From NCBI GenBank assembly GCA_002422165.1, contig DITQ01000002.1, positions 13,174-77,173 on the forward strand: a DNA stretch of 64,000 nt, given 5' to 3'. The stretch comes from Candidatus Pacebacteria bacterium UBA6180. Its GTDB lineage: Bacteria; Patescibacteriota; Microgenomatia; UBA1400; PJMF01. The notes below the pieces were generated by a model that made no database searches, was not told the DNA's origin, and saw only the letters and a list, made by a program, of their open reading frames with translations. Below are positions 21,309-42,399 of this stretch, in pieces. Numbering within the stretch: position 1 is the stretch's first letter; each line of letters opens with the position of its first letter. The translations under genes and the position numbers were made by a program.

Positions 21309-21379
21309 GTAATAATTTTTATGTTAAATTTCCTGCTACAAACTTAAATTACAAGTTAGTTTCAAAAAAAGGAGGTCTC

Positions 21380-21807: not shown

Positions 21808-23442
<1,635 letters not shown>

Positions 23443-23443
23443 A

Positions 23444-23601
23444 AATCTTTTCAAGCTTGTCTTGCGACACGCTTGACTGAAACATTTGCTTGTTGAAGTT
23501 AACTGCCTTCTTCAAGCTCGGTGAGGCCGCTGTTTCTTGCTTGTTCAATTTTGAGCTAGCAGGCAGCGGCCTCAAACGGTCTTAGACGACTTAAAAAGAT
23601 T
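23444..23601 (+). ncRNA. candidate structured RNA element, copy A (after groEL)
   Basis: Outer IR aatcttttcaag/cttaaaaagatt, inner gac-a-cg/cg-gtc, 11-bp stem tgaggccgctg/cagcggcctca; homologous to copies at 31438 and 42232. Confidence 0.65.
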
Positions 23602-23658
23602 ATTTTTGAGAAAGAAAAAAAAGCGGCGGTTTCTAATGGTCTTTCGTCAAGAATTTTT

Positions 23659-24072
23659 TCACCATAACTTGTTTACTTTATTACCTATTTCAAGAGCTAG
23701 TTCAGGATTTATGCTGGCAACCATGCCTAGAAAAGTTTGCCATTCATAAATTTGAACCTCGAAACCTTCCTGGTCGAAAGTGGCTTTCTGGTGGAGTTTG
23801 AGGAAAAATAAGGGAAAGATAATCTGACCTAGGAACATATTACCTAAGAAAGTTAGGGAGTTTGTGTTCACCTCCAAACCAAGCTCTTCTCGACACTCCC
23901 TGATGGCTGTTTCTTGAGCAGATTCTAGAGATTTGCGACCGCCTCCAGGCAAGTTTAAGTATTGGTCGTTGGTTTTGAGTTCCTTAACCAAAATAATGTT
24001 GCCATTAGCGTCAATTAGCACCACGTGAGCGCCGGTAAATTCCTGCGGAAGACTTTCTTTCTTAAAAGACAA
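23659..24072 (-). CDS. NUDIX hydrolase
   Basis: Nudix box GGGRKSLESAQETAIRECREELG; start codon uncertain. Confidence 0.85.
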   Translation of the reverse strand: MSFKKESLPQEFTGAHVVLIDANGNIILVKELKTNDQYLNLPGGGRKSLESAQETAIRECREELGLEVNTNSLTFLGNMFLGQIIFPLFFLKLHQKATFDQEGFEVQIYEWQTFLGMVASINPELALEIGNKVNKLW

Positions 24073-24146
24073 GTGAGCTAAATTGGGATTTAATAGAGAA
24101 TCTTTTGTTGACGTAGTCGTGTTTTTTTGCTGAATTTACTTGAAAG

Positions 24147-24220
24147 TAGCGGGACTGAGATTCGAACTCAGGACCTTCGGTTTATGAATCCGATGCTCTA
24201 ACCAGCTGAGCTATCCCGCC
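24147..24220 (-). tRNA. tRNA-Met(CAT), probably elongator
   Basis: Reverse complement GGCGGGATAGCTCAGCTGGTTAGAGCATCGGATTCATAAACCGAAGGTCCTGAGTTCGAATCTCAGTCCCGCTA; CCA not encoded; Ile2 identity not excluded. Confidence 0.92.
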
Positions 24221-24309
24221 GTTTGCTTTGAATTCTTCTGCAAAAGAGTATTTTAGCGCAGGTTGCTTGATAATGCCAGATTGTTTTGTTACAATAGCCA
24301 CCTAACATA

Positions 24310-24378
24310 CGCGGGATAGTGTACGGTGCACGTGGGGCTCATAATCCTACAGGCTAGGTTCGACTCCTAGTCCCGCAA
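24310..24378 (+). tRNA. initiator tRNA-Met(CAT), unusually short
   Basis: CGCGGGA/TCCCGCA acceptor with C1:A72 mismatch, CTCATAA loop, CTAGG-TTCGACT-CCTAG T arm. Confidence 0.88.
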
Positions 24379-24518
24379 CAATCAACCCATGATCAAATCA
24401 AAATTTAAATTCCTCGTGACTCACTCCACTTCTTCTTGCTCCTAAATTTGCTGGATGCCGTATTTTCCCAGCTGCACCACGTTTTTCAATAAATATTACC
24501 GTGAAGAAATAGGAAAAA

Positions 24519-25130
24519 ATGAACATTATATTTGATTTAGATTCAACGTTGACGACTATAGAAGGAATTGATGAGCTTGGAGTAATGAAAAATCTCCAAG
24601 AACGCATAACCACACTTACAAATAAAGCCATGAGTGGGAAAATTCCACTTAGTGAAGTTTTTGAAGAGCGATTGTCAATTTTAAAACCGACTCAAGATGA
24701 ATTGTCACTCATAAGTGAACTTTATTTAAAAAATATTACGCCATACGCAAGCGAATTAATAAGAATACTCAAAAAAAAGCATAGGGTTTTTATTGTTACT
24801 GGTGGTTATGAAACTTGCGTGCTCCCAGTAGCCAAATATTTAGAAGTTGATCGTATATATGCAAATAAAATTATTTTCAACCAAAAAGGGGAGTATGTTG
24901 GGCTAGATAAAACGATTCCACTGTGGAGAAATGGTGGAAAAGGAGAAATAGTGCAGCTGATCAAAAAAACTTATCCAGGGCAAAGTATGATGATAGGCGA
25001 TGGTTTCAGCGATCTTGAAGCTGGTGCCGACAAGTTTGTGTGTTTTGCAGGAGTAATGCAGCGAAAAGAAGTGATGAAAGAGGCGGATCACATCATCTAT
25101 GATTTACGAAAAGTTCTTAATTTTGTGTAG
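24519..25130 (+). CDS. HAD-IB phosphoserine phosphatase-like (SerB)
   Basis: FDLDST, VTGG, K, IGDGFSD motifs; AT-rich. Confidence 0.85.
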   Translation: MNIIFDLDSTLTTIEGIDELGVMKNLQERITTLTNKAMSGKIPLSEVFEERLSILKPTQDELSLISELYLKNITPYASELIRILKKKHRVFIVTGGYETCVLPVAKYLEVDRIYANKIIFNQKGEYVGLDKTIPLWRNGGKGEIVQLIKKTYPGQSMMIGDGFSDLEAGADKFVCFAGVMQRKEVMKEADHIIYDLRKVLNFV

Positions 25131-25149
25131 GCATAAAGCCAAGATAAAC

Positions 25150-25572
25150 TTATTCAAGCAGCAACCTCTTCCACTCCTCCAGCGGCCCATTTTTCACTTC
25201 GCTGTCCTCTTTGTTGTTTGGTAGAATCTCTTTTTCTGGAATCTGCAGGATAATTTCACCAGTCTTTTGTAGCAGCAATTCGTTGCGCTGGATTTTTTCT
25301 AGGGTGAGTTCGCTCTGGCCAGTAGTGGCGATTCGCGCTTGTTCTTGATCGGCATTTTCTAATTGTTTGACACTATCCTCTAATTGCTTGATGCTTTGCT
25401 TGGATATTTCAGCCTGGTCTTTGCTTTTTTCTAGTGAGAGAATGGCCAAAATGCATAGTAGTGTCAAGCCAAGGACGATCAGTGGGTGATTGAGCAATTG
25501 GCGACTTGACTGTTTTTTGGTAGTTTTGCTGAAGTTTTTGACCACTTTATATTTTTTAATCGAGTTTCCCAC
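25150..25572 (-). CDS. septum formation initiator (FtsB/DivIC-like)
   Basis: TM, coiled coil, EKIQRNELLLQKTGEIIL, final W-helix. Confidence 0.6.
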   Translation of the reverse strand: MGNSIKKYKVVKNFSKTTKKQSSRQLLNHPLIVLGLTLLCILAILSLEKSKDQAEISKQSIKQLEDSVKQLENADQEQARIATTGQSELTLEKIQRNELLLQKTGEIILQIPEKEILPNNKEDSEVKNGPLEEWKRLLLE

Positions 25573-25659
25573 TTGTTGATTGACCTATTTTATGATATTA
25601 TAAGACTTTGATATTCGTTAATTTAGAAAACCAACTGTCCTGGTTCAGGTGGATAAATT

Positions 25660-26526
25660 ATGCACACAAGTCTAATCGACGCGCAAGCGAGATTTACTGA
25701 AAGTTTAAAGACAGGCGGCAAAGCCCACGCCACGGTCATTGCGTACAGCAAAGACATTGAACAGTTGGCTGATTTTCTAAGTAAAAGATCCAAAACCCTA
25801 CTTAGCGAAGTGTTGACCGACGATGTCGAGGATTTCAAGGAGTTGTTGCGTAAACAACGCTACACCACTAAGTCCATTTCTCGCAAAATTAATTCTATCA
25901 AGGCTTTCTTTCGTTTTTGTTTGAGTGAAGGCTTGCTTAGTAGCAATCCAACCGAAGATATTTCTCAACCTAAATTTGATCAGTCTCCTCCTCGCATTTT
26001 GTCTCGCCTAGAATACCGCGCTTTGCGTGATTCTTGTCGGGCCGATGCTCGCATGCACGCCATCGTGGAGATTTTGCTCCAGACAGGGATGCGTATCAGC
26101 GAATTGGCTAATTTGCAAATTACTGACATCGATCTCGAGCGCGAGCTAATCTACATTCAAGCTCAAAATTCTCGGGAAGCCCGCCGCATTCCTCTTAACT
26201 CCGCAGCCAAGAAATCTGTTATGGATTATTTGCGTTTACGTCCTCGTACCAAAGAAAAAACTCTTTTTCTGACCAAAACTTGTCGCCCCTTCTTGGTGCG
26301 CAATATTCGCACCGCTATTGATCGTTACTTCCGTTTGGCTGGTATTAAAGATGCCAAGGTCAATGACCTGCGACATACTTTTGTCATCGAGCAGCTCAAG
26401 GCTGGCACACCCTTAGTTTACGTCTCGCAGTTAGTCGGGCACAAGCGCATTACCACCACCGAAAAATACCTCCACTTGATTGAGGCTCCAGACATGCAGC
26501 CGAATATTAAGATTGAAGAGTTGTAA
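25660..26526 (+). CDS. XerC/XerD-family tyrosine recombinase
   Basis: SAM-like N-domain, TGMRISE, NDLRHTF, VGH, TTEKY. Confidence 0.9.
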   Translation: MHTSLIDAQARFTESLKTGGKAHATVIAYSKDIEQLADFLSKRSKTLLSEVLTDDVEDFKELLRKQRYTTKSISRKINSIKAFFRFCLSEGLLSSNPTEDISQPKFDQSPPRILSRLEYRALRDSCRADARMHAIVEILLQTGMRISELANLQITDIDLERELIYIQAQNSREARRIPLNSAAKKSVMDYLRLRPRTKEKTLFLTKTCRPFLVRNIRTAIDRYFRLAGIKDAKVNDLRHTFVIEQLKAGTPLVYVSQLVGHKRITTTEKYLHLIEAPDMQPNIKIEEL

Positions 26527-26610
26527 ATTTCAATAAACTTTTCAGAGTCGCGTTCGACGGAAATATTTTTTAATTAACGGCTTTATTTCTCACTCGTTGA
26601 AAGCGCTGCT
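26527..26610 (+). repeat. 5' half of the structured element, copy D
   Basis: gtcgcgttcgacggaaa...ctcgttgaaagcgctg matches copy B gtcacgtgcgacggaaa...ctcggtgaaggcgctg; no 3' half found. Confidence 0.55.
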
Positions 26611-26612
26611 AA

Positions 26613-26873
26613 TCACCATCTTCTTTTTTGATCTTTTAAAGGGACATAATCTTTTTTTTCTGTCCTTTCCTCCTCTTCTTTTGTCAAAGCTAAAAAAAGA
26701 TTACGTACTCTGACTCCCCATTTAACAGTTTTTTGAGCTGTTTGCTCATGGCGCAGCAGTCGCAACAAGGTAGTTTTTTCTTTATCATCCATAAGTTTAA
26801 GATCTTCGAGCTCAGCATGTTTTAAAGCTGCTTCTGCTACTCTTTGGGTTGTGTCATTGATTTCGTTTGCCAT
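26613..26873 (-). CDS. hypothetical protein (AT-rich orphan)
   Basis: 86-aa ORF convergent on the Xer gene. Confidence 0.6.
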   Translation of the reverse strand: MANEINDTTQRVAEAALKHAELEDLKLMDDKEKTTLLRLLRHEQTAQKTVKWGVRVRNLFLALTKEEEERTEKKDYVPLKDQKRRW

Positions 26874-26982
26874 TGTTTCTATTTAATAATAGGTTTTAAA
26901 ATCTTGCAAGATATGACGTTGCTCTATTTTTTTAAGTACTTAAAATCTTGTTGGTGAGTGAATTATTTATGCTAAGATACCT

Positions 26983-27993
26983 ATGACTATGACACAGACA
27001 TCCAAGACTCGCGTTTTCTCCGGCACCCGTGCCACCGGCCGTCTCCACCTCGGTAATTATTTTGGTGCCGTCAAAGGCTATATCGATTTACAGAATGATT
27101 CGAAGTATGAGTGTATTTACATGGCGGTCGATGTTCATACCATTACCACGCCGTATGAGGCGGTGACCTTGGCGACTTCGACCAGAGAAATAATCATGGA
27201 CTACCTAGCAGCTGGACTCGATCCAGACAAAGCGATCGTTACCATCCAGTCATTGGTGCCCGAGCACGTGGAGTTAGCATTTTTGTTTTCCTCAGTAGTG
27301 TCGGTGGCCAAGATGCAGCATCTCCCGACTTTCAAAGACAAGGTTAAGCAGCACCCCGATAATGTCACTCTAGCGCTGCTCAACTATCCAACCCTGATGG
27401 CGGCGGATATTTTGTCTTACAAGACTGAGCTGGTCCCGGCTGGTCTTGATCAGGAGCCACACATCGAGGTTACTCGCGAGATTGCTCGGCGGATGAACGA
27501 TCTTTACGGCACAGATTTTCCAGAAACCAAGCGCTTTGCTACCCCAGCACAATATGTACCTTCACTTACCGGCGCTGGCAAGATGAGCAAGTCAGTCGAG
27601 GGCAGTTCGATCAACTTGACCGATGATTTGGCACTGATCAAGAAGCGGCTAGCCAGTTGTCCTACCGATGCTGGCACAGGGGAAGTGGTTCCAACTAGCG
27701 GTGGGGTCGCTAACTTGCTGACTTTTGTCGAAATTTTCCAAGGAACAGAGCGTAAAAAGGTCTACGAAGCCGACTATTTGAGCAAGGGTATTCGCTATGG
27801 CGATCTCAAGGCCGAATTGGCGGAGGCGATTTTCGCTCACTTGGCACCGATTCGAACCAAGCGTCTGGAATTAGAACAAAATCAAGCTTACGTCGATCAA
27901 ATTATTAAGGACGGGGCTATAAAAGCCCGCCAAATTGCCGCAGCCACGCTTCGTGAGACCAAAGCCAAGATGGGATTTTATGGCCAAAATTAA
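26983..27993 (+). CDS. trpS: tryptophanyl-tRNA synthetase
   Basis: HLGN, YPTLMAADIL, DQEPHIE, KMSKS. Confidence 0.97.
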   Translation: MTMTQTSKTRVFSGTRATGRLHLGNYFGAVKGYIDLQNDSKYECIYMAVDVHTITTPYEAVTLATSTREIIMDYLAAGLDPDKAIVTIQSLVPEHVELAFLFSSVVSVAKMQHLPTFKDKVKQHPDNVTLALLNYPTLMAADILSYKTELVPAGLDQEPHIEVTREIARRMNDLYGTDFPETKRFATPAQYVPSLTGAGKMSKSVEGSSINLTDDLALIKKRLASCPTDAGTGEVVPTSGGVANLLTFVEIFQGTERKKVYEADYLSKGIRYGDLKAELAEAIFAHLAPIRTKRLELEQNQAYVDQIIKDGAIKARQIAAATLRETKAKMGFYGQN

Positions 27994-29104
27994 TCTTGCT
28001 GTCATATGTGGTGGGCGCAGCGTCGAACACGAAGTCTCGCTTGTGTCTGCCAAAAATATTTTGGCCGCAGTCGATCAGCAAAAGTACAACCTGCACTTAT
28101 TGGCGGTGGCCAAGGATGGCTCATTTCGCTATTACCGGAATTGGCAGAATTTTCTCAACCATCCAGATGACACCAATTTCGTCTCTCTTAAGCCAGAGGG
28201 TTTCACGCCTGTTGCTTTTTTGAGCGCTGATGCTCGTGGTCAAGTGTTGCTGCTTAGCGAGACACAAGAATTTTTGCAGCTCGACGTGGTTTTTCCGATC
28301 ATGCACGGCACTTTTGCTGAAGATGGCAAGATGCAGGGTTTCTTGGAGATGCTCAATTTGCCCTATGTTGGTCCAGATGTCTTAGCCTCGAGTATTTCGA
28401 TGGACAAGCAGGTCACCAAGCAGCTGACTGACCAGGCAGGTATCAAAAGCGCCAAGTATTTGACTTTCACTAGCGCCACTCGCGCGGAAATTACTCTGGA
28501 AAGCATTGAGGCTGCTTTGGGCTTGCCAGTTTTTGTCAAACCCGCTAACTCTGGTTCTTCGGTGGGCATCAGTCGCGCGACCGACGAACTCTCGCTCTAT
28601 CAGGCAGTCGAACAGGCTTTTAGCGTTGACCATAAAATTCTGATCGAAGAAGCCATCGTTGGCAGAGAGATCGAATGCTCGGTTCTTGGTAACCATGGTG
28701 CGCTGCAGGCTGGCGAGGTGGGTGAAATTATTCCAAGCAGCAAGCATGGTTTTTATTCTTATGATGCCAAATATCTCGATGAGGATGGGGCAGCTTTGCT
28801 GATTCCAGCACCGCTGTCTCCAGCCAAGAAAAAAGAAGTCCAAGAGTTGGCTAAGCAAATTTTTGTCACTCTCAACTGTGAAGGTATGGCGCGAGTTGAT
28901 TTTTTCCTTGACGGTAAGGACCAAGTTATTTTCAATGAAATCAACACCATCCCAGGTTTTACTAAAATTAGCATGTATCCTAAACTGATGATGGCTGAAA
29001 CAGGCCTGACTTACAGCGCCCTCATTGATCAGCTGATCGAGTTGGCAATCAAGCGTCATCAGCGTAACTCCGCCCTGCTCTTGGAAAAAAAGATGGTAGA
29101 ATAA
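27980..29104 (+). CDS. ddl: D-alanine--D-alanine ligase
   Basis: GGRSVEHEVS, HGTFAEDG, KPANSGSSVG, YSYDAKY, NEINTIPG. Confidence 0.96.
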   Translation: MAKINLAVICGGRSVEHEVSLVSAKNILAAVDQQKYNLHLLAVAKDGSFRYYRNWQNFLNHPDDTNFVSLKPEGFTPVAFLSADARGQVLLLSETQEFLQLDVVFPIMHGTFAEDGKMQGFLEMLNLPYVGPDVLASSISMDKQVTKQLTDQAGIKSAKYLTFTSATRAEITLESIEAALGLPVFVKPANSGSSVGISRATDELSLYQAVEQAFSVDHKILIEEAIVGREIECSVLGNHGALQAGEVGEIIPSSKHGFYSYDAKYLDEDGAALLIPAPLSPAKKKEVQELAKQIFVTLNCEGMARVDFFLDGKDQVIFNEINTIPGFTKISMYPKLMMAETGLTYSALIDQLIELAIKRHQRNSALLLEKKMVE

Positions 29105-29132
29105 TTGCTCCTGTTATAAAATAGAACCTCCT

Positions 29133-29468
29133 ATGGCTGACACAATTCAATTCAGTGATTTCATTAAAGTAGAAATGCGCGTCGGGCTGGTGACGGCTGT
29201 TAGTGCACCAGAGTGGAGTGAAAAATTGCTAGAATTTACTGCAGATTTTGGTCCAGAAATCGGCACGCGCCGCGTCCTTTCTGGCGTGCGCCAGTGGTAT
29301 GGTGAATCTGACTTTTTGAACAAAAAATTTCCCTTCGTTGTCAATTTGGCTGAGCGCAAAATGGGCCCAAGCAGCAGTCAAGGCATGATGATGATGGTCG
29401 ATGGCCCAGACAAACCAATCCTAATTGAACTAAATGAACAAGCAAAAATAGGCGACCCTTTGGCCTAA
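29133..29468 (+). CDS. Trbp111/CsaA/MetG-C-like tRNA-binding OB-fold protein
   Basis: FSDFIKVEMRVG, VVNLAERKMG..SQGM. Confidence 0.85.
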   Translation: MADTIQFSDFIKVEMRVGLVTAVSAPEWSEKLLEFTADFGPEIGTRRVLSGVRQWYGESDFLNKKFPFVVNLAERKMGPSSSQGMMMMVDGPDKPILIELNEQAKIGDPLA

Positions 29469-29489
29469 ACTAAAAAAATAGAAAGATTT

Positions 29490-31430
29490 ATGACCGAAAA
29501 CGCAGCTGATCAAAAAAACCCAAACACTACTTCAAAGAAGCCTACAGCCAGCCAAAATTCTGGTGCGCCCAAGCAAAATCCTTCATACAAGCGCGTCGAA
29601 GTCAAAATTAATTTGAACAAATTTTTCAGCAAAACTTTGATTTACTTGTTGATCATTTTCCTATTTGTGCCTTCGCTGCTTGGCGCCTTTGGTGCTGGCA
29701 ATGCCCGCGAATCAATCACTATCAGTCAGATGGTTACTGATATTCGTGAGGATAAAGTCGCCAAAATGGAAGTTTACACTCAGGAGTTGCGCTTGACCTA
29801 CAAGGATGACTCCAAAAAAGTTGCCAAAAAAGAAGAAGGCCAACAAGCGCTGCAGATTTTAAACGCCGCTGGAATTGATCTGACCACTGTCGACACGGAA
29901 GTTCATGATGCCACTTTTTTGCAAATGATGTGGGAGTTGATTATCAATTTCTTGCCAATTATTTTGATGTTCGTTTTCCTGATGATCATGTTCCGCCAAG
30001 CACGTGGTGGGGCAGGTGGTGACATGATGTTTGGCATGGGCAAGAGCAAAGCTAAGGTTTTCGTCAAAGGCAAGCAAAACATTTCCTTCAAGGACGTCGG
30101 TGGCATGGATGAAGCCAAGAAAGAACTTGAGGAAATTGTTGACTTTTTGAAAAATCCCAAGAAATACACGCGTGTTGGTGCGCGTACGCCCAAGGGTGTG
30201 CTTTTGGTCGGGCCAGCAGGTACAGGTAAAACCCTGCTTGCTAGAGCAGTGGCTGGCGAAGCCAATGTGCAATTTCTTTCGATTGCTGGTAGTGAATTTA
30301 TGGAAATGCTGGTTGGCGTCGGCGCATCGAGGGTCAGAGATCTATTTGATACTGCCAAAAAAATTGCTCCATCCATTATTTTCATCGATGAAATTGATGC
30401 CATTGGTCGCACTCGTAGCCGCAACAGCATGTCTTCTCACGATGAGCGCGAGCAGACGCTAAACCAAATTTTGGTGGAAATGGACGGTTTTACTCAGAAC
30501 GACAACGTGATTGTTATGGCTGCCACCAATCGCGGCGATATGCTTGATCCAGCTTTGGTTCGTCCAGGTCGTTTCGATCGTCGCGTCCAAGTCAACTTGC
30601 CAGATCTCGAAGAGCGCAAATTTATCTTAAGTATTCACGCTAAAAACAAAGTTTTCACCAAAGACCTGAATTGGGATCGCGTTGCCAAGCGCACCGTCGG
30701 TTTTTCTGGAGCTGATCTCGAGAATATGCTCAATGAAGCTGCCATTGCTATCGCTCGCGAAAATCGTACTGAGGTAACTATGGAAGACATCGAAGAAGCC
30801 TCGCTTAAGACTAAGTATGGTCCGAGCAAAAAACGTCTTCAAGACGAGCTCGAGAAAAAGATGACCGCCTATCACGAAGCTGGTCACGCCGTCTTGGCTC
30901 ACGTTTTGCCTTATGCCGATCCGGTCCACCGTATTTCAATTGTTTCTCGCGGTCAAGCTCTCGGTTATACTTTTACTCCTCCAGAAAAAGACAAGTTGCA
31001 AATCCTCAAGTCAGAACTACTTGATGATATGGTTGTGATGTTTGGTGGGCGCGCGGCTGAAATGTTGATCTTCAACGAGCAAACCGCTGGCGCCAGCAAT
31101 GACATCGAGCGAGCTACCAGAATCGCTCGTAGCATGGTGGTGCGCTTCGGGATGAGTAGCTTAGGACCGATGAATTTCGGACCGATTTACGAAACTGAGG
31201 ACTACAATCGTGCTTGGGTTGAGCCAGACAAATTATCTCCTAAGATTCAGGAACAAGTTGATGCAGCCATGTTGTCTTACATCGGTGAAGCTGAAACCAA
31301 AGCCATGACTTTGCTCAAAAAATATCGTTCCAAGTTGGAGCTAGTAGCCACGGAGTTGCTTGAGCGTGAAACTTTGGACGCTGATGATTTTGCCAAACTG
31401 ATGGACATGCCCAAAGCCAAAGTCGTATAA
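29490..31430 (+). CDS. ftsH: ATP-dependent zinc metalloprotease FtsH
   Basis: Two TMs, [27 protein letters not shown]. Confidence 0.98.
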
Positions 31431-31437
31431 TCGAATT

Positions 31438-31598
31438 ATAGTTTTGCTCTTTAATTCAGTCACGTGCGACGGAAAGGTTTGCTTCATTGAAGTTGACAAT
31501 CTTCTTCTTACTCGGTGAAGGCGCTGTTTAAAACATAAGTTATTTGTTTTTGTTACTGCCCATCGCCTTCAACGGACTGCCTTAAAGAGCAAAACTAT
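31438..31598 (+). ncRNA. candidate structured RNA element, copy B (after ftsH)
   Basis: Perfect 17-bp outer IR atagttttgctctttaa/ttaaagagcaaaactat, cagtc-a-cgt/acg-gactg, tgaaggcgctg/catcgccttca. Confidence 0.65.
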
Positions 31599-31638
31599 TA
31601 GAAATATTTAAAGGTAAGTTTTTTTAAAACACAACGCA

Positions 31639-32571
31639 GTGCCAAGTTCTCATAAATTTCTCCTTGTCGATGCTCACGCTTTGATCTATCGCGCTTACTA
31701 CGCGATTCCCAACCTAACCGATCCTCAGGGTAATTTAGTCAATGCGGTTTATGGTTTTAGTAAAATGCTGCTTAATGCCATTTCCTACTTCGAACCAGAG
31801 TACGCGGCGGTTTGTTTCGATCATCCCAAACCAACTTTTCGTCACAAGAAATTTGACGGCTACAAGGCACAGCGCGCCAAAATGCCCGATGATTTGATTC
31901 CGCAAATCCAGATCGTCAAAGATGTGGTCGCAGCACTCGGTGTGCCGAAGTTCGAGCTAGAAGGTTTCGAAGCCGACGATTTGATCGGCACAGTCAACTG
32001 CAAAGTCGAGGATTTAAATGACGGCTTGATGACGATCATCGTCACTGGTGATCAGGATTCTTTCCAACTGGTTGATGATGATACTCACATCTGGATGCCT
32101 GCTCGTGGTAAGCAGAAGGGCGACATCGAGTACGATGCTGGACTGGTGGAGAAAAAACTCGGCATCAAGCCAGCGCAAGTGATTGACCTCAAAGCCCTAA
32201 TGGGTGATAGCTCTGACAATATTCCAGGAGTGAAAGGGGTGGGTCCCAAGACCGCCGCTGCCCTAGTTCAGAAATTTGGCAGCGTCGAGCAAGTTTATGA
32301 TTTTTTGAGTAAAAACCCCACTGGCAACGAACTGATTAAAGGTGCACTTTTGACCAAACTGATAGATGGTCGAGAAGATGCCTTAATGAGTAAAGATTTG
32401 GCGACTATCAGCTGTAATGTGCCGCTAGATTTCGAACTCGAGCAGTGTCGAGTGACTGGTTACGACAAAAACCAAGTTATTAGTATTTTTCAAACTTTGG
32501 GCTTCAAGTCGTTAATTAGCTTGCTCCCACAAGACGCGTTTGAAAGTTCAGTTCAGGAGGCTTTGTTTTAA
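31639..32571 (+). CDS. 5'-3' exonuclease (stand-alone PolA N-terminal domain)
   Basis: LLVDAHALIYRAYY, NAVYGF, EADDLIG, TGDQD, MGDSSDNIPGVKGVGPKTA. Confidence 0.92.
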   Translation: MPSSHKFLLVDAHALIYRAYYAIPNLTDPQGNLVNAVYGFSKMLLNAISYFEPEYAAVCFDHPKPTFRHKKFDGYKAQRAKMPDDLIPQIQIVKDVVAALGVPKFELEGFEADDLIGTVNCKVEDLNDGLMTIIVTGDQDSFQLVDDDTHIWMPARGKQKGDIEYDAGLVEKKLGIKPAQVIDLKALMGDSSDNIPGVKGVGPKTAAALVQKFGSVEQVYDFLSKNPTGNELIKGALLTKLIDGREDALMSKDLATISCNVPLDFELEQCRVTGYDKNQVISIFQTLGFKSLISLLPQDAFESSVQEALF

Positions 32572-32572
32572 T

Positions 32573-33718
32573 ATGTCAAAAAAACCCCAGCGTGTCGCTC
32601 TTGTTCATGATTATCTCCGCGAATATGGTGGGGCTGAGCGAGTGCTGGAGGCTTTACACCAGATTTGGCCAGAAGCGCCAGTTTATACAGCCTTTGCCGA
32701 TCCTCGAGCTATGGGGACTAACTGGGCGCGTTTTGCTACTTGGGATATCCGTCAGAGCAAGTTGACCTCTTTTCCTTTTTATCGTCAGCTTTTTTCGCCG
32801 CTGCGTATTTTTGCCAAGTGGGCCTTCGAGCAATTTGACCTTCGTGAATATGATTTGGTCATTAGCTCAAGTAATGCCTATTTTGCCAAAGCGGCTCGCG
32901 CTGTTTCTAGTCGCCATTTCTGCTACTGTCACACGCCACCAAGAGTTCTTTATGGCTATAGTGCGAAAAGCAACTGGCAAGCTAATCCATTAACTAAGGC
33001 AGCCGGAAATTTTCTCAACCATTTCGTGAGGCAAATGGATTTTATCGCTGCCCAGAACCCTGACCAGATGATTGCTAATTCTAGAGAAACTCAACTACGT
33101 ATCAAAAAATTTTATAAACGCTCTAGCGTAGTAATTAACCCACCGATTGCCATTTATGATGAGGCAGCAGAATTTTTTGCTAAGCTGAGTAAAAAAGAAC
33201 TTGCTGACCTGGCAGTTAAGAAACAAAACTCTTATTATCTCTACGTCAATCGTCTTGCCAAATCTAAACATCCCGACTTAGCAGTGCAGGTAGCCAGTGA
33301 ACTAGGTTTGCCTCTCAAGGTGGTGGGAACAGGAGCGATGCTTTCGTCACTTCGTGCCATGGCCAAGTCAAATGTGGAATTTCTAGGTTTCGTCGATGAT
33401 CAGCAATTGTCAGGGTTGTACAAGAATGCTCGTGCTTTGCTTTATCCAGCCGAAGATGAAGATTTCGGCATGGTGCCAGTAGAAGCGATGGCTTACGGCA
33501 CCCCAGTGATTGCCCACTCTTCAGGTGGACCACTAGAAACGATTGAGGACGGACGGACTGGTCTTTTCTTCGCGGAATTAAGTACTGCTAGTTTGCGTCA
33601 AGCAATCATCAAATTTGAGAAAAATTTTGTACTCAATCCTCTGATAATTCACCAAATTACTAAACAATATTCCTTCGCAGCATTTAAACAAAAACTACTC
33701 AAGTTAGTCTCAGATTAA
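32573..33718 (+). CDS. glycosyltransferase family 4
   Basis: GGAERV, YCHTPPR, EDFGMVPVEAMA. Confidence 0.92.
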   Translation: MSKKPQRVALVHDYLREYGGAERVLEALHQIWPEAPVYTAFADPRAMGTNWARFATWDIRQSKLTSFPFYRQLFSPLRIFAKWAFEQFDLREYDLVISSSNAYFAKAARAVSSRHFCYCHTPPRVLYGYSAKSNWQANPLTKAAGNFLNHFVRQMDFIAAQNPDQMIANSRETQLRIKKFYKRSSVVINPPIAIYDEAAEFFAKLSKKELADLAVKKQNSYYLYVNRLAKSKHPDLAVQVASELGLPLKVVGTGAMLSSLRAMAKSNVEFLGFVDDQQLSGLYKNARALLYPAEDEDFGMVPVEAMAYGTPVIAHSSGGPLETIEDGRTGLFFAELSTASLRQAIIKFEKNFVLNPLIIHQITKQYSFAAFKQKLLKLVSD

Positions 33719-35139
33719 TTGCGGATTAGTTTCAATTTAGCCACCTCGTTAATTGGCATAAAAACTTCAACTCGCAGCAGCGCGGCATCGGTGGCAACTT
33801 GTTGATTTTGTTTACTGCCACCCAAGAATTCTTGGTTTAGTGTGTAGCTGCCTGGCTCGATGTTGGTAAAAGTAATCGGTACCAGTTCGCTATTTCTTCC
33901 TTTAGGATCGAAGTTAGCGATAATTAATTCAACTTCTCCCAAATCATTACGAGCGGCCAATGCTTTGACAAAAGAACCAAGGCCAGTGATTTGTAATCGT
34001 TGGTCGGGGATGCTATCAAGCATGCGTAGGGCTTGATAGCGAGGTTTGGAATTGGCTCCGAAATCGTTATGTGTAAACATCCCCCACCTCCCCCAATGCT
34101 GTTTACCCTCTGGGTCTTTGCCATCTTGGATCTCAAAAGCAAAAGCTCGCTCAACACGATTGCTCATGGCGATTGCTCCTGCGACTGTGTGAGCAGCGCT
34201 GTATGCTGAATCATATCCAGCGTGATTGTTGCTGTCATGACCCCATTCGGTGATTTGGAATTCGAGAGTTGGCTCTAATTGGGGAAATTCCTGTACCCAC
34301 TGTCTCACCAGAGCCATGTCTTCGGCGAATTGTTCGATGTTGTTGCTGTAGCGATGCCAGGAGAAAAAATCACAACGCCAGTTGTTGGCAACGCAGCCCT
34401 TGGCCCAAGCAGTGAACCAGTTTTTATAGAGTGCGGTGATAGCGGGGCCACCAAGCTTGAAGGGCAAGACACTGCGGGCATTTTTGGCTCCAGCACTAGC
34501 GTAGGCGTACATGGTCAGGTAATTTTTGTCACCGTAATATTTGAAAGAGCCGAAGAGGTCTGGCTCATTCCAGACCTCATAGTAGACATCGCTAATTCTT
34601 CTAGTACCACTCAGGTGCTCGATGGTGCGCTGAACGACCAGTTGCCAATCTGACCAGTGGACAGGATAAGCTAAGATATCTCCAGAAGAAATTGCTGGTG
34701 GCATGTAGCTAAGGGCGATGTAAGGTTTGGCGCCTGTAGCTAAGATGTCATCAATGATTAAATCAAACTTAGTCCAATCAAAAGTAATGTTGCCAGGAGT
34801 GCCTTGGACAATGTCGTAGAAATCATAGATGTGGTCGAGGCGAATATACTCTGGCTTGAGCGTGGAAACTGGTCCTGTCAGGTTGGCAATGCGCCAGTTA
34901 TGATCTTCACCTCCCTGAGCAAGATTGCGCCAGGGTCGAGGCATAGGACCAAGAGCGGCAGTAGTGTTGACTATTAAATTGGCTGGAATACCGCTGGCTT
35001 GACCGAAAAATTCTCTGACTACTTGGATCTGCCAGGCCCCAGCCATGACACCGGTTAGAACAATCAATAAGCCAAGAAAAGACAACATGGCTTTACGCTT
35101 TTGCTTAAGTCTTGGGTTAATAGTGTAGTTTTGCCTCAT
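33715..35139 (-). CDS. glycoside hydrolase family 39-like (clan GH-A)
   Basis: YEVWNEPD acid/base, SWHRY, ITEW nucleophile; N-terminal TM. Confidence 0.8.
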   Translation of the reverse strand: MRQNYTINPRLKQKRKAMLSFLGLLIVLTGVMAGAWQIQVVREFFGQASGIPANLIVNTTAALGPMPRPWRNLAQGGEDHNWRIANLTGPVSTLKPEYIRLDHIYDFYDIVQGTPGNITFDWTKFDLIIDDILATGAKPYIALSYMPPAISSGDILAYPVHWSDWQLVVQRTIEHLSGTRRISDVYYEVWNEPDLFGSFKYYGDKNYLTMYAYASAGAKNARSVLPFKLGGPAITALYKNWFTAWAKGCVANNWRCDFFSWHRYSNNIEQFAEDMALVRQWVQEFPQLEPTLEFQITEWGHDSNNHAGYDSAYSAAHTVAGAIAMSNRVERAFAFEIQDGKDPEGKQHWGRWGMFTHNDFGANSKPRYQALRMLDSIPDQRLQITGLGSFVKALAARNDLGEVELIIANFDPKGRNSELVPITFTNIEPGSYTLNQEFLGGSKQNQQVATDAALLRVEVFMPINEVAKLKLIRN

Positions 35140-35243
35140 GTAATTTTATGCTAGCAAAAAAATAGAGTCTTGTCTTATTGACTTTGTCTATTTATAATCC
35201 AGCACGTAAATCGCTACGCTAATTTAATAGAAAGACATAAACC

Positions 35244-36122
35244 ATGGCCGCAGATAGCTTGCATGTTTCTATTTCCGCTGAGACAGTTGTTAACGTTTTT
35301 GGACTGCCAATCAGCAACTCTATTTTTACCAGTTTATTAGTCAGTTTCTTCCTAGTTGGTTTTGCAATTTATTTCAGATCAAAATTCAAAGAGACTGATC
35401 AGCCGAGTGGCTTACAAAATTTCGTCGAAATGGTGGTGGATGCTCTATACAATTTCGTTTATTCGATTACTGAGAATCACAAAAAATCTGCTCTTTTCTT
35501 TCCCATCATTGCTTCATTTTTCATTTTCATCATTATGAACAACTACGTGGGCTTGTTGCCTGGAGTAGGCCCAATTATGGTTGAGGAGGGTAAAATTGGC
35601 CAAAATGGTATTGTCACAGAAGTGCTTGCTTCATCTGAACCTGAAATAGAAGTGACAGAGGCTGCGGATTCGATTGCTGCGGAAGAACACAAGGAAGAGC
35701 ACAAGGCAGTTCCGCTACTTCGCGCTGCTACCGCTGATCTTAATACAACTTTGGCCTTGGCAATCATTTCTGTTTTCTTGACTCAAGTTTTTGGAGTGTC
35801 TCATTTAGGCTTGGCTTATTTCAAGAAATTTATTGATTTTTCCAACCCTATCAACTTTTTTGTAGGCATTTTAGAAATTATTTTAGAGGTAGCCAAAATT
35901 GTCTCTTTTGCTTTCAGGTTGTTTGGTAATATTTTTGCTGGCGAGGTCTTATTGGTTGTCATGACCTACTTGGTTGCAATTGCTGTGCCAGCGCCTTTCT
36001 ACGCTCTTGAGTTGTTTGTAGGCTTTATTCAGGCCTTAGTTTTCTCGATGTTGTCCTTAATATTCTTTAATTTGGCCACCAAAGGCCACCACGAAGAAGA
36101 GCATGAGACAGCTGCAGCTTAG
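35244..36122 (+). CDS. atpB: ATP synthase subunit a
   Basis: SFAFRLFGNIFAGE, FIQALVF. Confidence 0.96.
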   Translation: MAADSLHVSISAETVVNVFGLPISNSIFTSLLVSFFLVGFAIYFRSKFKETDQPSGLQNFVEMVVDALYNFVYSITENHKKSALFFPIIASFFIFIIMNNYVGLLPGVGPIMVEEGKIGQNGIVTEVLASSEPEIEVTEAADSIAAEEHKEEHKAVPLLRAATADLNTTLALAIISVFLTQVFGVSHLGLAYFKKFIDFSNPINFFVGILEIILEVAKIVSFAFRLFGNIFAGEVLLVVMTYLVAIAVPAPFYALELFVGFIQALVFSMLSLIFFNLATKGHHEEEHETAAA

Positions 36123-36154
36123 TATTTAGGTAATATAAAAATTAATAATAATAA

Positions 36155-36388
<234 letters not shown>

Positions 36389-36422
36389 ATCAAAGCAAAA
36401 AAAAGAAAAGGAGCTCTAAGCT

Positions 36423-36908
36423 ATGGATATACAATTAGCCCAAATTATCTTTCAGATTATCAACTTTGGTGTGGTCTTGGGTGCCCTCACTTATTTCATT
36501 TATAAGCCAGTCCTTAAGTTGCTCAATGATCGCCGCGAGCGAGTGGCCGCCGCCGCCGCTGCTGCTGGCGAAGTGATGCAGGACAAAGAGGATCTAGAAC
36601 GCTTGCGCGAAAAGACTTTATTAAAAGCCAGTCAAAAAGCCAAGAAAATGGAAAACGATATTCGCAGCGAAGCACAAGCACAAGCCAAGCTCATGCTTGA
36701 ACAAAGCAAAAAAGAAATAGCTGCTCGCGAAGCCAAGTTTTCAGCTGAACTCAGCAAAATGAAAAAAGAAGAAATGCGTTCTATGGAAGCTGTGATGAAA
36801 AAAGCGGCTCTCACTATGGCAGAAAAAGTTATTGGTGAGTCACTGGACAACAAGAAACATCAGAAATTACTTGACGAACAAATTGACCAAGTAATCAAAA
36901 GTCTATAA
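36423..36908 (+). CDS. atpF: ATP synthase subunit b
   Basis: QIINF..YKPVLKLLNDRR, coiled coil. Confidence 0.93.
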   Translation: MDIQLAQIIFQIINFGVVLGALTYFIYKPVLKLLNDRRERVAAAAAAAGEVMQDKEDLERLREKTLLKASQKAKKMENDIRSEAQAQAKLMLEQSKKEIAAREAKFSAELSKMKKEEMRSMEAVMKKAALTMAEKVIGESLDNKKHQKLLDEQIDQVIKSL

Positions 36909-36913
36909 AAAAT

Positions 36914-37129
36914 ATGTTGCAAATTAATGTCGCTAGCGCTGTGGCTCTAAGCAGCGCACAAAAAAATAAGTTAGAGGCTGCTTTGCAGAAGAAATACAGT
37001 CAAGAACAAGTAGTTTTTAATTATCAAGTCAAAGAAGAATTGATTGCCGGATTGAGTGTCAGCGTGGCGGGCAAATTGCATGATGCAAGTTTGCGTGCTC
37101 GTCTCAATCAGTTGGCTAGTAAGATCTAA
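36914..37129 (+). CDS. atpH: ATP synthase subunit delta, C-terminal domain only
   Basis: VASAVALS...LIAGL...DASLRARL; 71 aa. Confidence 0.88.
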   Translation: MLQINVASAVALSSAQKNKLEAALQKKYSQEQVVFNYQVKEELIAGLSVSVAGKLHDASLRARLNQLASKI

Positions 37130-37134
37130 CTTTT

Positions 37135-38652
37135 ATGTCAAAATCAGATATTTTTGCTAATTTGAGTTCAATTAAAACTGCCGATCTTCAAGTCAAAGAA
37201 GTTTCTGTGGGCAAAGTGATTTCCTTCGCCGACGGAATTGTTTTTACTGATCAGTTGCGAGACGTACAATCAGGCGAACTTGTTAGTTTCGGTGGGGAAG
37301 CTTATGGTCTAGCCCTTAATCTCGAGAGAGAAAAAGTTGGCATCATCGTTTTATCTGGCGCAGAACAAATCAGAGCCGGGGACTTCGTTTATCGTACTGG
37401 CAAAATTTTATCGATCAACGTCTCAGACGAAATTGTCGGCCGAGTAGTTGACCCAATGGGTCAAGCAGTTGATGGTAAATCTGCAATCGCTGCCGACAAA
37501 GAAATGTTTTTGGAAAAAATTGCTCCTGGTGTAATTGCTCGTGAGGGTGTCAATCAACCAATGCAAACTGGTATCAAGGCAGTCGACGCTTTGATTCCTA
37601 TTGGTCGTGGTCAGCGTGAGTTGATTATCGGCGATCGCAATACCGGCAAGTCTTCTGTGGCTTTGGCCAGCATTCTCAACCAAAAGGGTCAGGACATGAT
37701 TTGTATTTACGTCGCTATTGGTCAGAAAAAATCGACTTTGGCTCAATTCATCCAAGTTTTGGAAGATAAGGGCGCGATGGAATACACTACTGTCGTTTCT
37801 GCTTCTGCTTCTGAAGCTGCTTCATTGCAATTCTTGGCTCCTTACTCTGGTCAAGCTGTGGCAGAATACTTTTTAGCCAAAGGCAAGGATGTCTTGATTG
37901 TTTTTGATGATTTGAGTAAACATGCTCAGGCTTACCGTGAAATTTCTCTGTTGCTCAAGCGCCCTTCTGGCCGTGAAGCTTATCCAGGTGACGTTTTCTA
38001 CCTGCACTCTCGTTTGCTAGAGAGAGCTTGTAAACTCAACGTCGAAAATGGTGGCGGTTCGATTACCGCTTTGCCAATTATCGAAACCCAAGCTAACGAC
38101 GTCTCCGCCTACATTCCGACCAACGTCATTTCTATCACTGATGGTCAAATTTATCTGGAAACTGATTTGTTTAACTCTGGTATGAGGCCAGCTATCAACA
38201 TTGGCTTGTCAGTTTCTCGTGTCGGTTCTGCCGCCCAGCTCAAAGCCATGAAGCAAGTTGCTGGTAGCTTGAAGCTTGATCTGGCGCAATTTAGAGAATT
38301 GGAGGCTTTTGCTCAATTCAGTTCTGATCTGGACGCGACCACCAAGAAGCAACTCGAGCGAGGTAAGCGCGTCAGTGAAATTCTTAAGCAAGCTTGGGAT
38401 TTGCAGATGTCAGTCGCAGAGCAAGTCTTGATGATTCACGCTGCGGTTGGTGGTCATCTCGATGAAGTTGAAATCACCGATCTAGGTGAATGGGAAGCTA
38501 GTTATTTGGCTTTTGCCAAGAGTAACAATCCCAAGCTAGTTGAACACTTGAACAGCGGACCCAAGATCGCGACATCGGAAGAAGAAGCTTTGCAAAAACT
38601 TATTAAAGATTTTGCCAAAGCCTACCCTCGTTTTTATAAGAAAGAGGCCTAA
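37135..38652 (+). CDS. atpA: ATP synthase subunit alpha
   Basis: GDRNTGKS, GREAYPGDVFYLHSRLLERA. Confidence 0.98.
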   Translation: MSKSDIFANLSSIKTADLQVKEVSVGKVISFADGIVFTDQLRDVQSGELVSFGGEAYGLALNLEREKVGIIVLSGAEQIRAGDFVYRTGKILSINVSDEIVGRVVDPMGQAVDGKSAIAADKEMFLEKIAPGVIAREGVNQPMQTGIKAVDALIPIGRGQRELIIGDRNTGKSSVALASILNQKGQDMICIYVAIGQKKSTLAQFIQVLEDKGAMEYTTVVSASASEAASLQFLAPYSGQAVAEYFLAKGKDVLIVFDDLSKHAQAYREISLLLKRPSGREAYPGDVFYLHSRLLERACKLNVENGGGSITALPIIETQANDVSAYIPTNVISITDGQIYLETDLFNSGMRPAINIGLSVSRVGSAAQLKAMKQVAGSLKLDLAQFRELEAFAQFSSDLDATTKKQLERGKRVSEILKQAWDLQMSVAEQVLMIHAAVGGHLDEVEITDLGEWEASYLAFAKSNNPKLVEHLNSGPKIATSEEEALQKLIKDFAKAYPRFYKKEA

Positions 38653-38657
38653 GTTTT

Positions 38658-39569
38658 ATGGCTAACGCTAGAATCATCAAACGCCGCGTCAATTCTGTGC
38701 AGAATATCGCCAAAATTACCAAGGCGATGCAAATGGTGTCGGCCAGCAAAACTCGCTACTCTCAGAGGATGGCCACCAGTTCTTTGCCTTACATTAAGTC
38801 TTTGCTCGAATCTCTAGAAACAGTTGCTGGCTCAGTTGATCAGGAGGCTCATCCTTTTCTCAATCGTGATCGTTCTGGAGCTGATTTGTTGATTATCATT
38901 TCTACCAACAAGGGTCTGTGTGGCTCGCTCAATACTAATTTGTTTAAAAAACTAATCTTGTGGGCCAAGAATCGCCCCAACGCCCAATACATTGCTGTGG
39001 GTCAAAAAGCCGTCAATTTCTTGCGTATGCACGACTTTGACTTGCTTGCTGGCTTTACTGATTGGCCAGAAAAAACCAAGCTAAGCGATATTTTGCCATT
39101 GATGGATATGGTTAAAGAACGTTATCTGGAAGGGAAAATTAACCGCGTCGACGTCTTGTTTACCGATTACATTAATAATCTTTCGCAGCGCAGTTTGATT
39201 TTTCGCCTGTTGCCAATCGAAGACTTGGAAATTCAGCAGCTCGGTAGCGAATTTCAAAATAAAATCATTAAAGTGCCAACCAAAGAGGCGACAAAAGAAC
39301 AAGTCAAAACTACCCCAGTTAATTATTTGCTTGAGCCAAGTCCAAAAGAATTGCTAGACTTTTTGCTCAACTACTATCTGGAATTGAGCTTCTATCACTT
39401 AGTTTTGGAAGCTCTAGCTAGCGAACATTCGGCGAGAATGATTGCTATGAAGAGTGCCAGCGACAACGCCAAGGATTTAGTCGAAGTTCTGAAACTTGAC
39501 TTTAATAAATCTCGCCAGACTATGATTACTAATGAACTCTTAGATATTAGCAGCGCCAAAATGCGTTAA
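38658..39569 (+). CDS. atpG: ATP synthase subunit gamma
   Basis: KITKAMQMVS, KGLCG, SEHSARMIAM, RQTMITNE. Confidence 0.97.
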   Translation: MANARIIKRRVNSVQNIAKITKAMQMVSASKTRYSQRMATSSLPYIKSLLESLETVAGSVDQEAHPFLNRDRSGADLLIIISTNKGLCGSLNTNLFKKLILWAKNRPNAQYIAVGQKAVNFLRMHDFDLLAGFTDWPEKTKLSDILPLMDMVKERYLEGKINRVDVLFTDYINNLSQRSLIFRLLPIEDLEIQQLGSEFQNKIIKVPTKEATKEQVKTTPVNYLLEPSPKELLDFLLNYYLELSFYHLVLEALASEHSARMIAMKSASDNAKDLVEVLKLDFNKSRQTMITNELLDISSAKMR

Positions 39570-39588
39570 GGAATCAATAAAGGAATAA

Positions 39589-40989
<1,401 letters not shown>

Positions 40990-41006
40990 AAGGCAAAAAT
41001 TAAGAA

Positions 41007-41417
41007 ATGAGCAACAAACTAAGGCTTACCATCGTTTCCCAAGAAGAGCAGTTACTTGATCAAGAAGTTGACTCTGTGACTTTGTCGACCAAAGACGGCA
41101 TCATTACTTTGTTGCGCGATCATCAACCTTTGATTAGTAAATTAGAATTTGGTGAATTAGATTACCAAGTTGGCAATCAACGCCACACAATGTTGTTGAC
41201 TCAGGGTTTTGTCAATAAAAAGCCAGACAACCAAGTTTTAGTTGTCGTTGATTCCGCGTTTAGCGCGCGCGAGCTCAATAATGAAAAAATCAAAGCGGCT
41301 GTCGCGCGCGCCAAAGAAGCCTACAAGATGTCGGCTGACAAGCAAGACCTGCTGATGATCGAAGCTTCGCTTAAACAACTTTTCTGGGAAGTACAGTTGG
41401 CCAACAAAAAGAAGTAG
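41007..41417 (+). CDS. atpC: ATP synthase subunit epsilon
   Basis: LTIVS, GIITLLRDHQPLIS; last gene of the atp operon. Confidence 0.92.
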   Translation: MSNKLRLTIVSQEEQLLDQEVDSVTLSTKDGIITLLRDHQPLISKLEFGELDYQVGNQRHTMLLTQGFVNKKPDNQVLVVVDSAFSARELNNEKIKAAVARAKEAYKMSADKQDLLMIEASLKQLFWEVQLANKKK

Positions 41418-41449
41418 GGCTTCTCCTAAGTAATAAATTGCTTGACAAC

Positions 41450-41476
41450 TTAGCAAACTCTCGATATGATTGCTAA
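41450..41476 (+). promoter_or_regulatory. CIRCE upstream of hrcA overlapping the promoter
   Basis: TTAGCAAAC-N9-GATTGCTAA just downstream of TTGACA (41442), overlapping TATGAT. Confidence 0.8.
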
Positions 41477-41513
41477 TAGACTTGTGGCAAAATAAGTCTA
41501 GGAGTTAATCATT

Positions 41514-42230
41514 ATGATCGATTTAGTTGCCCGTCAAATCCAAATTTTACGCGCCATCATCGAAGAATTCATCGAGACTGGCATGCCGGTTGGTTCAGAA
41601 AAGATTGATAAGAAGTTCAACATCGGTGTTTCCCCAGCGACCATTCGTAATGAAATGGTTTATCTGACCAAACAAGGCTACTTGATAAAATCTCACATCA
41701 GTGCCGGCCGCGTGCCTACTGCCCTGGCGATGCGCCTCTACATCAACGAATTAGTCAAGGAAAAGGAGCTCTCTGTTGCCGATGAAGTGGGCGTCAAAGA
41801 AAAAATTTGGCGCTATCGCCACCAGATGGAGGACTTGCTTTACGAGACTTCACGAGTTTTGGCAGAAAAATCGCACGCACTTGGTATCGCCATGAACGCT
41901 GAGGGCAGGATGTTTCACTCTGGCTACGCCAATTTATTGCAGATGCCGGAATTTTACGACATCAATTTGACCAGACAGGTGCTGCAGATGATCGAGGAAG
42001 ACCGAATTATGGATCAGATTTTTGACAGCAATCGCAGCGAAAACACGGTCAAGGTTGTTTTTGGTCAAGAACTTGGCAATCGTGATCTGGATCAGATCAG
42101 TATCATGTTTGTCGAGTTGCCAAATAGTAATTGCCGCTTTGGCGTTTTGGGTTCGACGCGCTTTGATTATTCTTACGTTTTGCCAATAATGAAATATTTC
42201 AAAGGGTTGATTGAGAGCATGGAGGAATAA
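41514..42230 (+). CDS. hrcA: heat-inducible transcription repressor HrcA (short form)
   Basis: RQIQILRAII, PVGS, SPATIRNEM, HISAGRVPT, GSTRFDY. Confidence 0.95.
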   Translation: MIDLVARQIQILRAIIEEFIETGMPVGSEKIDKKFNIGVSPATIRNEMVYLTKQGYLIKSHISAGRVPTALAMRLYINELVKEKELSVADEVGVKEKIWRYRHQMEDLLYETSRVLAEKSHALGIAMNAEGRMFHSGYANLLQMPEFYDINLTRQVLQMIEEDRIMDQIFDSNRSENTVKVVFGQELGNRDLDQISIMFVELPNSNCRFGVLGSTRFDYSYVLPIMKYFKGLIESMEE

Positions 42231-42231
42231 G

Positions 42232-42399
42232 TTTTTAATATTTAAACTTCAATACAGACACGCTCGACTAAAACTTATGCCTATTTTAGTTAGCCATCTT
42301 TGTCTCGTTCAAAGAAAGAGCTGTCTACAAACAAATTAAATTATTTAAGATTCTGCCCAGCTCTTTCTATGGTCTGTCTTAAAGTCTAAATATTAAAAA
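42232..42399 (+). ncRNA. candidate structured RNA element, copy C (hrcA-grpE spacer)
   Basis: 17/18-bp outer IR tttttaatatttaaactt/aagtctaaatattaaaaa, acagac-a-cg/tg-gtctgt, agaaagagctg/cagctctttct. Confidence 0.65.

Follow-up and report, generated by a model that had tools for sequence, protein, structure and literature searches.

A 64-kb stretch of the Candidatus Pacebacteria bacterium UBA6180 genome (contig DITQ01000002.1, positions 13,174 to 77,173; hereafter the window, in whose positions coordinates are given) carries, behind groEL, ftsH and hrcA, three copies of a structured repeat of about 165 nt. They belong to a family of Y-shaped folded repeats that is scattered among unrelated genes and uncatalogued. 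The fold is real and structurally constrained, and the element is probably folded as RNA. On balance, the evidence leans towards a non-autonomous mobile structured element of one lineage of Patescibacteria (Candidate Phyla Radiation, CPR), partly co-opted by its hosts. This reading rests on the dispersal of the copies, their gain and loss site by site, the copying of whole units to unrelated sites, the fold itself, and the polarity and orientation of the folded strand. Of the options listed when the three copies were first noticed in the window sequence (the original prediction), a non-autonomous mobile element is the one favoured by the data.

Architecture and covariation of the fold

The fold was analysed in 91 full copies, namely 90 of the 94 profile matches in the fetched loci (four partial or weak matches were dropped) plus copy A of the window. 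The set occupies 55-56 sites and is a score-biased part of 140 matches. On the minus strand of the window copies, a closing stem (P1) and two arms (P2 and P3) meet in a three-way junction. P1 averages 24.3 bp and is at least 22 bp long in 74 of the 91 copies; the P2 arm measures 62.3 ± 1.2 nt, the P3 arm 47.6 ± 0.9 nt and the core 114.8 ± 1.8 nt. The junction is tight, with 0, 1 and 2 unpaired nucleotides: a single unpaired A separates P2 from P3, and two nucleotides follow P3.

Mutual information recovers all three helices, and no pseudoknot occurs among the top covarying pairs of the 91 copies. Changes on both sides are found at 35 of 42 named pairs, with 87.8% of cells paired (values uncorrected for relatedness); none of 500 shuffles reached the observed level, and slid controls were 35-45% paired. 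The early suggestion of a multi-stem junction under structural selection is thus borne out. A G-U pair is near-invariant (88 of 91 copies), and the pair after it is A-U in 81 of these 88, G-U in three, something else in four and never G-C. Tandem G-A pairs occur in P2 of 51 copies and in P3 of 58, and otherwise are often replaced by Watson-Crick pairs. The outer arms average about 40% identity between sites, versus 73% for the core, yet remain complementary inside any one copy; rather than being unique to each copy, as first described, they are homologues that have diverged. Their sequence is conserved only among three young copies in genome G150. In the relatives found in G152 and G150, the junction and the tandem G-A pair are kept and the helices differ, as judged by eye.

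Copy A (23444..23601, minus strand; 91.1 bits with model R2, which was built from the 91 copies) follows groEL (21811..23442, plus strand), to which its folded strand is antisense; its P2 arm lies at 23519-23577, P3 at 23471-23517 and the conserved G-U pair at 23507/23481. Copy B (31438..31598, minus; 129.5 bits) lies between ftsH (29490..31430, plus) and a 5'-3' exonuclease gene, with P2 at 31513-31574, the junction A at 31512, P3 at 31464-31511 and the G-U pair at 31501/31474. Copy C (42232..42399, minus; 128.5 bits) separates hrcA (41514..42230, plus; a short gene of 238 aa) from grpE (42418..42894, plus), with P2 at 42310-42371, P3 at 42262-42308, tandem G-A pairs at 42305-06/42264-65 and the G-U pair at 42298/42272. 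The places and gene names given in the original prediction are correct, as are the starts 1-7 nt past a TAA stop (23440-42, 31428-30 and 42228-30) and the 11-bp stems at 23522/23564, 31516/31561 and 42313/42358. The outer stems proposed for copies A (11 of 12 pairs) and B (17 of 17) hold; in copy C, the arms pair from the stop codon inward, with two A-C mismatches and one T-C mismatch over ~29 pairs. One detail gave way. The supposed YGACKRAA/AGTTR hairpin has five pairs that hold in just 29-64 of the 91 copies, and its bases pair with the supposed pyrimidine linker in 76-91, which makes the linker one of the strands of a helix. All three copies also fold beyond chance on the plus strand (z of -6.90, -5.54 and -5.94 for A, B and C; 0 of 200 shuffles each).

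A sigma-70-like promoter (31402..31431, plus; 11 of 12 matches) lies in the 3' end of ftsH, so that copy B sits where a downstream transcript probably begins. The -10 hexamer of this promoter overlaps the ftsH stop codon and is also present in empty ftsH sites; TATAAT was accordingly rejected as part of the element there, being the gene's own end.

As originally proposed, the element is no ordinary terminator and matches no Rfam family. The closing stems make no intrinsic terminator, the sole 5-bp pattern match, inside copy A, being at chance level. Nothing above the Rfam gathering score overlaps the element in the window, in 20 loci or in a further 9, and nothing, known ribozyme classes included, appears at E values up to 5-10. 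Likenesses to loop A of the hairpin ribozyme, to group I and group II motifs, to the T-loop and to the k-turn were dropped, since the bases pair or vary otherwise (Rfam was the only collection searched). In the literature on CPR repeats and RNAs, supplements aside, we found no description of the family.

Dispersal, site history and orientation

Within the 991-kb genome, a profile built from copies A, B and C identifies 15 full and three half copies. The 12 remaining full ones adjoin pheS, queA/helicase, rpsA/pgk, murB/murA-type and ubiA/trxB genes, a mannosyltransferase/oxidase pair, the dnaB operon, ABC-transporter genes, yqeY and tRNA-Thr. Such unrelated neighbours indicate that the apparent link to heat shock is a sampling effect. 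All three original copies do lie in protein-quality-control units, as was claimed, but the 12 other full copies and a half copy behind an xerC-type gene do not.

Model R1 gives 140 matches in 13 of the 15 genomes of the genus, with 5-19 matches per carrier genome; two genus genomes, 100% and 95% complete, have no full copy. Across the order, R1 matches occur in 4 of 121 genomes, all of one genus. Model R2 adds one diverged copy each in G152 and G150, which represent two other genera of the family (4 of 41 genomes), and its class-level search found none in 140 other genomes, a weak result since 19 candidates were scored per genome. An exact-pattern scan returned 20 loci in the species collection, and metagenomes gave seven matches with chromosomal-type flanks. 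There were no matches to two exact patterns among viral contigs and none in phage and plasmid records.

The copies occupy short spacers, immediately after a stop codon or -10 box. Some placements stand out. In both G000 and G003, tRNA-Thr has a copy directly adjoining its 5' end; in G150 (L200, 1020-1453 and 1501-1669), tmRNA is preceded by the diverged relative, which lies on its strand, 48 nt upstream; and in G008 (L034:1379-1553), a partial second element in opposite orientation directly adjoins a full copy.

Orthologous sites are filled in some genomes and empty in others: 7 of 14 at hrcA, 4 of 15 at groEL and 1 of 13 at ftsH, the hrcA-grpE spacer being the most often filled site in the sample. 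Traces of former copies are visible by eye at the hrcA site of G004, where the end of one arm remains, and at the ftsH site of G005, where the start of one arm remains. Directly behind copy A, the decayed end of an older copy (23609..23662, minus) matches the groEL copy of G004, with a local alignment score of 65 versus 37 for the best of 2000 shuffles. Two copies have thus occupied the groEL site; G009 carries the same remnant. A half copy comprising the P3 arm and one P2 strand (26520..26662, minus; 30.8 bits) lies behind a xerC/xerD-type tyrosine recombinase gene (25660..26526, plus), and the same site holds full copies in G004 and G005.

Elements were copied as whole units: copy B is sister to the copy at pheS in its own genome, with support of 100/99, and G150 holds three copies of the diverged relative that are 92-93% identical at unrelated sites. 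The copies of the window's genome do not form one clade (approximately unbiased [AU] test, p=0.0045), within a tree that is poorly resolved. Inside the junction of one young G150 copy (L210:87-295), a 40-nt GC-rich palindrome is inserted, a nested element resembling repetitive extragenic palindromes. Whole-unit replacement at hrcA was considered for G009 and G011, which share flanks and differ in element subtype; the case is suggestive, although a single origin is not rejected by the tree. Between G002 and G011, 270 nt behind groEL are the same (L157/L158) while other loci differ by ~20%, reflecting either recent exchange or a binning artefact.

At groEL, a scripted search found an intrinsic terminator in 10 of 11 empty sites and in none of the four filled sites, suggesting that the element stands in for a 3'-end signal. 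Within operons, its closing stems may be cut by RNase III, which is present in 5 of 5 genomes tested. This proposal is made by analogy with the Correia elements, where the stems of CREE (Correia repeat enclosed element) are bound by RNase III and affect the fate of the mRNA (PMC2649163).

Non-canonical pairs speak for the opposite strand from that first proposed. Closing-stem wobbles were said to favour the plus strand and a sense RNA; in the 91 copies, G-U falls on the minus strand 53 times and on the plus strand 21 times (11 versus 2 in the 15 copies of this genome). On the folded strand of the closing stem, purine-purine mismatches outnumber pyrimidine-pyrimidine ones by 40 to 17, and this strand is lower in energy in 70 of 91 copies with RNA parameters. 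Orientation relative to the neighbouring genes was called from the longest flanking open frame. Of 55 sites, 26 have the folded strand antisense to both neighbours and 9 have it in sense, while 13 are divergent, 3 convergent and 4 unclear (46/13/19/5/8 by copy), and the antisense excess at tandem sites is significant (26:9, p=0.006). The original prediction had associated random genes and random orientation with a mobile repeat; the genes are indeed random, but the orientation is not.

Transposition, host function and competing explanations

How might such an element spread? A folded single strand, most likely RNA, would be recognised by its shape, and a host or visiting enzyme, which was not found, would copy and insert it. 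Surviving copies may be mainly those whose folded strand runs antisense to the operon, since an mRNA would be disturbed by the fully folded form. In the sense strand, pairing persists in P1 and in most of P2, and survivors would act as passive mRNA signals: a 3'-end barrier or terminator substitute at groEL, and an RNase III site inside operons. Such passive signalling would explain why pairing is kept in old copies.

Several observations weigh against this reading. The longest direct repeat across element ends is 4.02 nt on average versus 3.83 ± 0.09 for permuted pairs, so no target duplication was found; visual inspection gave none at the three G150 copies or in comparison with empty sites. 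No mobiliser was found in searches for Y1, IS110 and reverse transcriptase families, DDE transposases not being among those searched. A single origin followed by losses is not rejected at hrcA (AU p=0.50) or groEL (p=0.71). The window's genus lacks a recent burst, in that identity between different-site copies of a single genome does not exceed 77.5%, which makes spread within the genus old. The polarity has exceptions: two P3 positions favour the other strand (pair 116-149, A-C in 12 copies, and 121-144, in 10), and the P2 loop is slightly better in energy on the non-folded strand (-2.8 versus -3.45). Immediately beyond the element, the non-folded strand carries a -10-like hexamer at 20 of 55 sites, where 10.8 would be expected, and the folded strand does so at 15 of 55, where 17.4 would be expected. 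Host promoters would thus mostly read the non-folded strand; no promoter of the element's own is evident that would produce the folded strand. Lastly, elements at the same hrcA site are 69-96% identical, versus 37-58% at hrcA fourfold sites. Conservation of this kind means that each copy is under selection or that elements were recently transferred into the same site, and it is just as compatible with a host function.

The enzymatic survey gave few leads. A Y1 transposase was found in 0 of 5 genomes and then in 1 of 5 in a second set (only G152), assemblies in both sets being possibly incomplete, and IS110 in 0 of 5. Reverse transcriptases occur in 2 of 15 genus genomes, the window's genome not being one of them, and in 3 of 5 other genomes; no element lies within the fetched reverse transcriptase or Y1 loci that could mark a retron or group II partner. 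The G150 reverse transcriptase (L222), with its small accessory gene and target-like gene, looks like part of a diversity-generating retroelement, and group II intron fragments are seen in G006 (L120). Neither G000 nor G150 has a further copy of the element ends around an open reading frame. Variable loops, compared with their own and with permuted flanks for the matches that an RNA-guided (bridge RNA-like) element would show, gave values within two standard deviations in six of eight comparisons. The P3 loop against the upstream flank reached 4.97 versus 4.74 ± 0.10, and the P2 loop against the downstream reverse complement 5.70 versus 5.38 ± 0.08; these are matches of 5-6 nt, with AT content uncontrolled.

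Rather unlikely, though the likeliest of the rivals, is a host-serving RNA module, a protein-binding decoy or processing signal that spread once and was then kept or lost gene by gene. Fixed arm lengths suit this explanation, as does strong conservation at shared sites: L039 and L051 share 163 of 165 nt within flanks that are ~80% identical. The module might be a partial mimic of the uS15-binding h20-h21-h22 region of 16S rRNA, where a G-U pair lies roughly one helical turn from a three-way junction (PMC4684408). By eye, against the 16S rRNA of the genus, the element resembles this site and its mRNA mimics in having a junction and a G-U pair about one turn along one arm. However, it lacks the GU/GC motif, the near-invariant G-U pair never being followed by G-C. 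Origin from, or mimicry of, 16S or 5S rRNA was rejected: likeness to the rRNAs of the genus is not significant (p=0.26 and p=0.79), and the element model does not score 16S. A host role also fits poorly with the two near-complete or complete genomes that lack a full copy, with neighbours that have no common function and with a folded strand that is mostly antisense.

A bolder extension of the mobile reading, which we regard as decidedly doubtful, would see in the element a type of mobile RNA, small and non-coding, that CPR bacteria have as a counterpart of short interspersed elements or retrozymes. Here, a Y-shaped RNA of fixed geometry would be released by RNase III through its closing stem, re-inserted or homed by shape into spacers without conserved ends, target duplication or an enzyme of its own, and exchanged between species at the same site; the junction itself may possibly give catalytic help. 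Copies that would fit such exchange are 95-98% identical inside flanks that are ~80% identical.

Movement as single-stranded DNA seems improbable. Strand polarity and the absence of target duplication are typical of single-stranded-DNA elements, and a REPIN-, IS200/IS605- or attC-like element, its folded strand cut and pasted by an HUH or tyrosine enzyme, would account for both. DNA parameters favour the same strand in 67 of 91 copies, and one end is often bordered by a stop-codon or -10-like motif. However, no Y1 transposase was found in six genus genomes tested or in G150, and the ends show no conserved sequence, tetranucleotide tag or core site. Two tyrosine recombinases are equally present in both genomes without elements, so the xerC/xerD-type gene is not a family-specific mobiliser. 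Replication-strand bias is not clear (9 versus 6 of 15 copies, from a reading of GC skew), and the near-invariant G-U pair and A-rich loops appear more RNA-like.

A new self-cleaving or self-ligating ribozyme, dispersed within a retro-mobile RNA, has a still smaller chance of being correct. Fixed geometry, invariant unpaired junction purines, the conserved G-U pair and tandem G-A pairs would suit it, and the antisense bias would follow if sense copies cut their own mRNA. Yet the folded strand lies in sense at nine tandem sites, and neither the Rfam search down to weak E values nor the covariation analysis gave a ribozyme match or a pseudoknot.

The idea of a heat-shock regulatory RNA, a thermosensor or processing switch of protein-quality-control operons, drew on the three window copies and on the frequent filling of the hrcA-grpE site (7 copies) and is now largely refuted, as unrelated genes adjoin 12 of the 15 full copies here and the majority of sites elsewhere, the element is missing from most relatives at ftsH (12 of 13) and groEL (11 of 15), and groES and hrcA already have CIRCE-like repeats upstream. 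These inverted repeats (21282-21308 and 41450-41476) are each three mismatches off the CIRCE consensus, and the one at hrcA overlaps a sigma-70 promoter (41442-41470; 11 of 12 matches).

The chaperone genes have peculiarities of their own. GroES (21302-21769) is 155 aa long and matches its family in two stretches, indicating an insertion. HrcA, with 238 aa versus 338 for the family model, also matches in two stretches, below the curated cut-off; the coding length is the same in all 14 genus genomes having hrcA. Elsewhere in the window, a weak Rfam S15 leader match (52599-52700; 19.7 bits, gathering score 39.5) lies upstream of a 92-aa open reading frame that precedes pnp.

Relation to known repeats

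In behaviour, the element resembles the bcr1, Correia, ERIC and SPRITE repeats (PMC3184786, PMC3049150, PMC6542083, PMC3446304, PMC2649163). Like the miniature transposable elements with inverted repeats known as MITEs, it is short, non-coding and dispersed, with terminal inverted repeats and with filled and empty orthologous sites. It differs from them in two defining features: MITEs have sequence-conserved terminal repeats and target duplications, whereas the arms of the element are ~40% identical, conservation resides in the interior junction and target duplications were not found. Correia elements (CREE/NEMIS) of Neisseria, ERIC of enterobacteria and RUP of pneumococcus, at 100-160 bp, likewise have terminal inverted arms that form a stem in mRNA (PMC2649163, PMC3184786).

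The bcr1 repeat of the Bacillus cereus group, ~155 bp long, is similarly lineage-restricted and dispersed between genes at non-conserved positions, with no known mobiliser, and its closing stem and two internal stem-loops are kept by compensatory changes (PMC3184786). In bcr1, however, each copy lies between 5-bp direct repeats bearing a TTTAT motif, which were not found at the element; the text consulted on bcr1 mentions neither a polarity to one strand with non-canonical pairs nor an antisense bias (PMC3184786). SPRITE of Streptococcus pneumoniae is AT-rich, occurs near stop codons without an established target duplication and has been proposed to be co-opted as a terminator, as may be the case for the element at groEL (PMC3049150). 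It differs in being a single 18-bp duplex with a U-tract, enriched between convergent genes (PMC3049150), whereas the element is a three-way junction found mostly between tandem or divergent genes, with 3 of 55 sites convergent.

Genomes smaller than 1 Mb would be expected to lose superfluous DNA, but those described here retain a folded element of precise size. Known small repeats of bacteria are recognised by their end sequences and leave target duplications; this one keeps its shape and is polar to one strand. If an RNA intermediate were true, it would represent a new route of mobility in bacteria. If the element is only a passenger, it still shows that mobile folds can replace terminators and processing sites.

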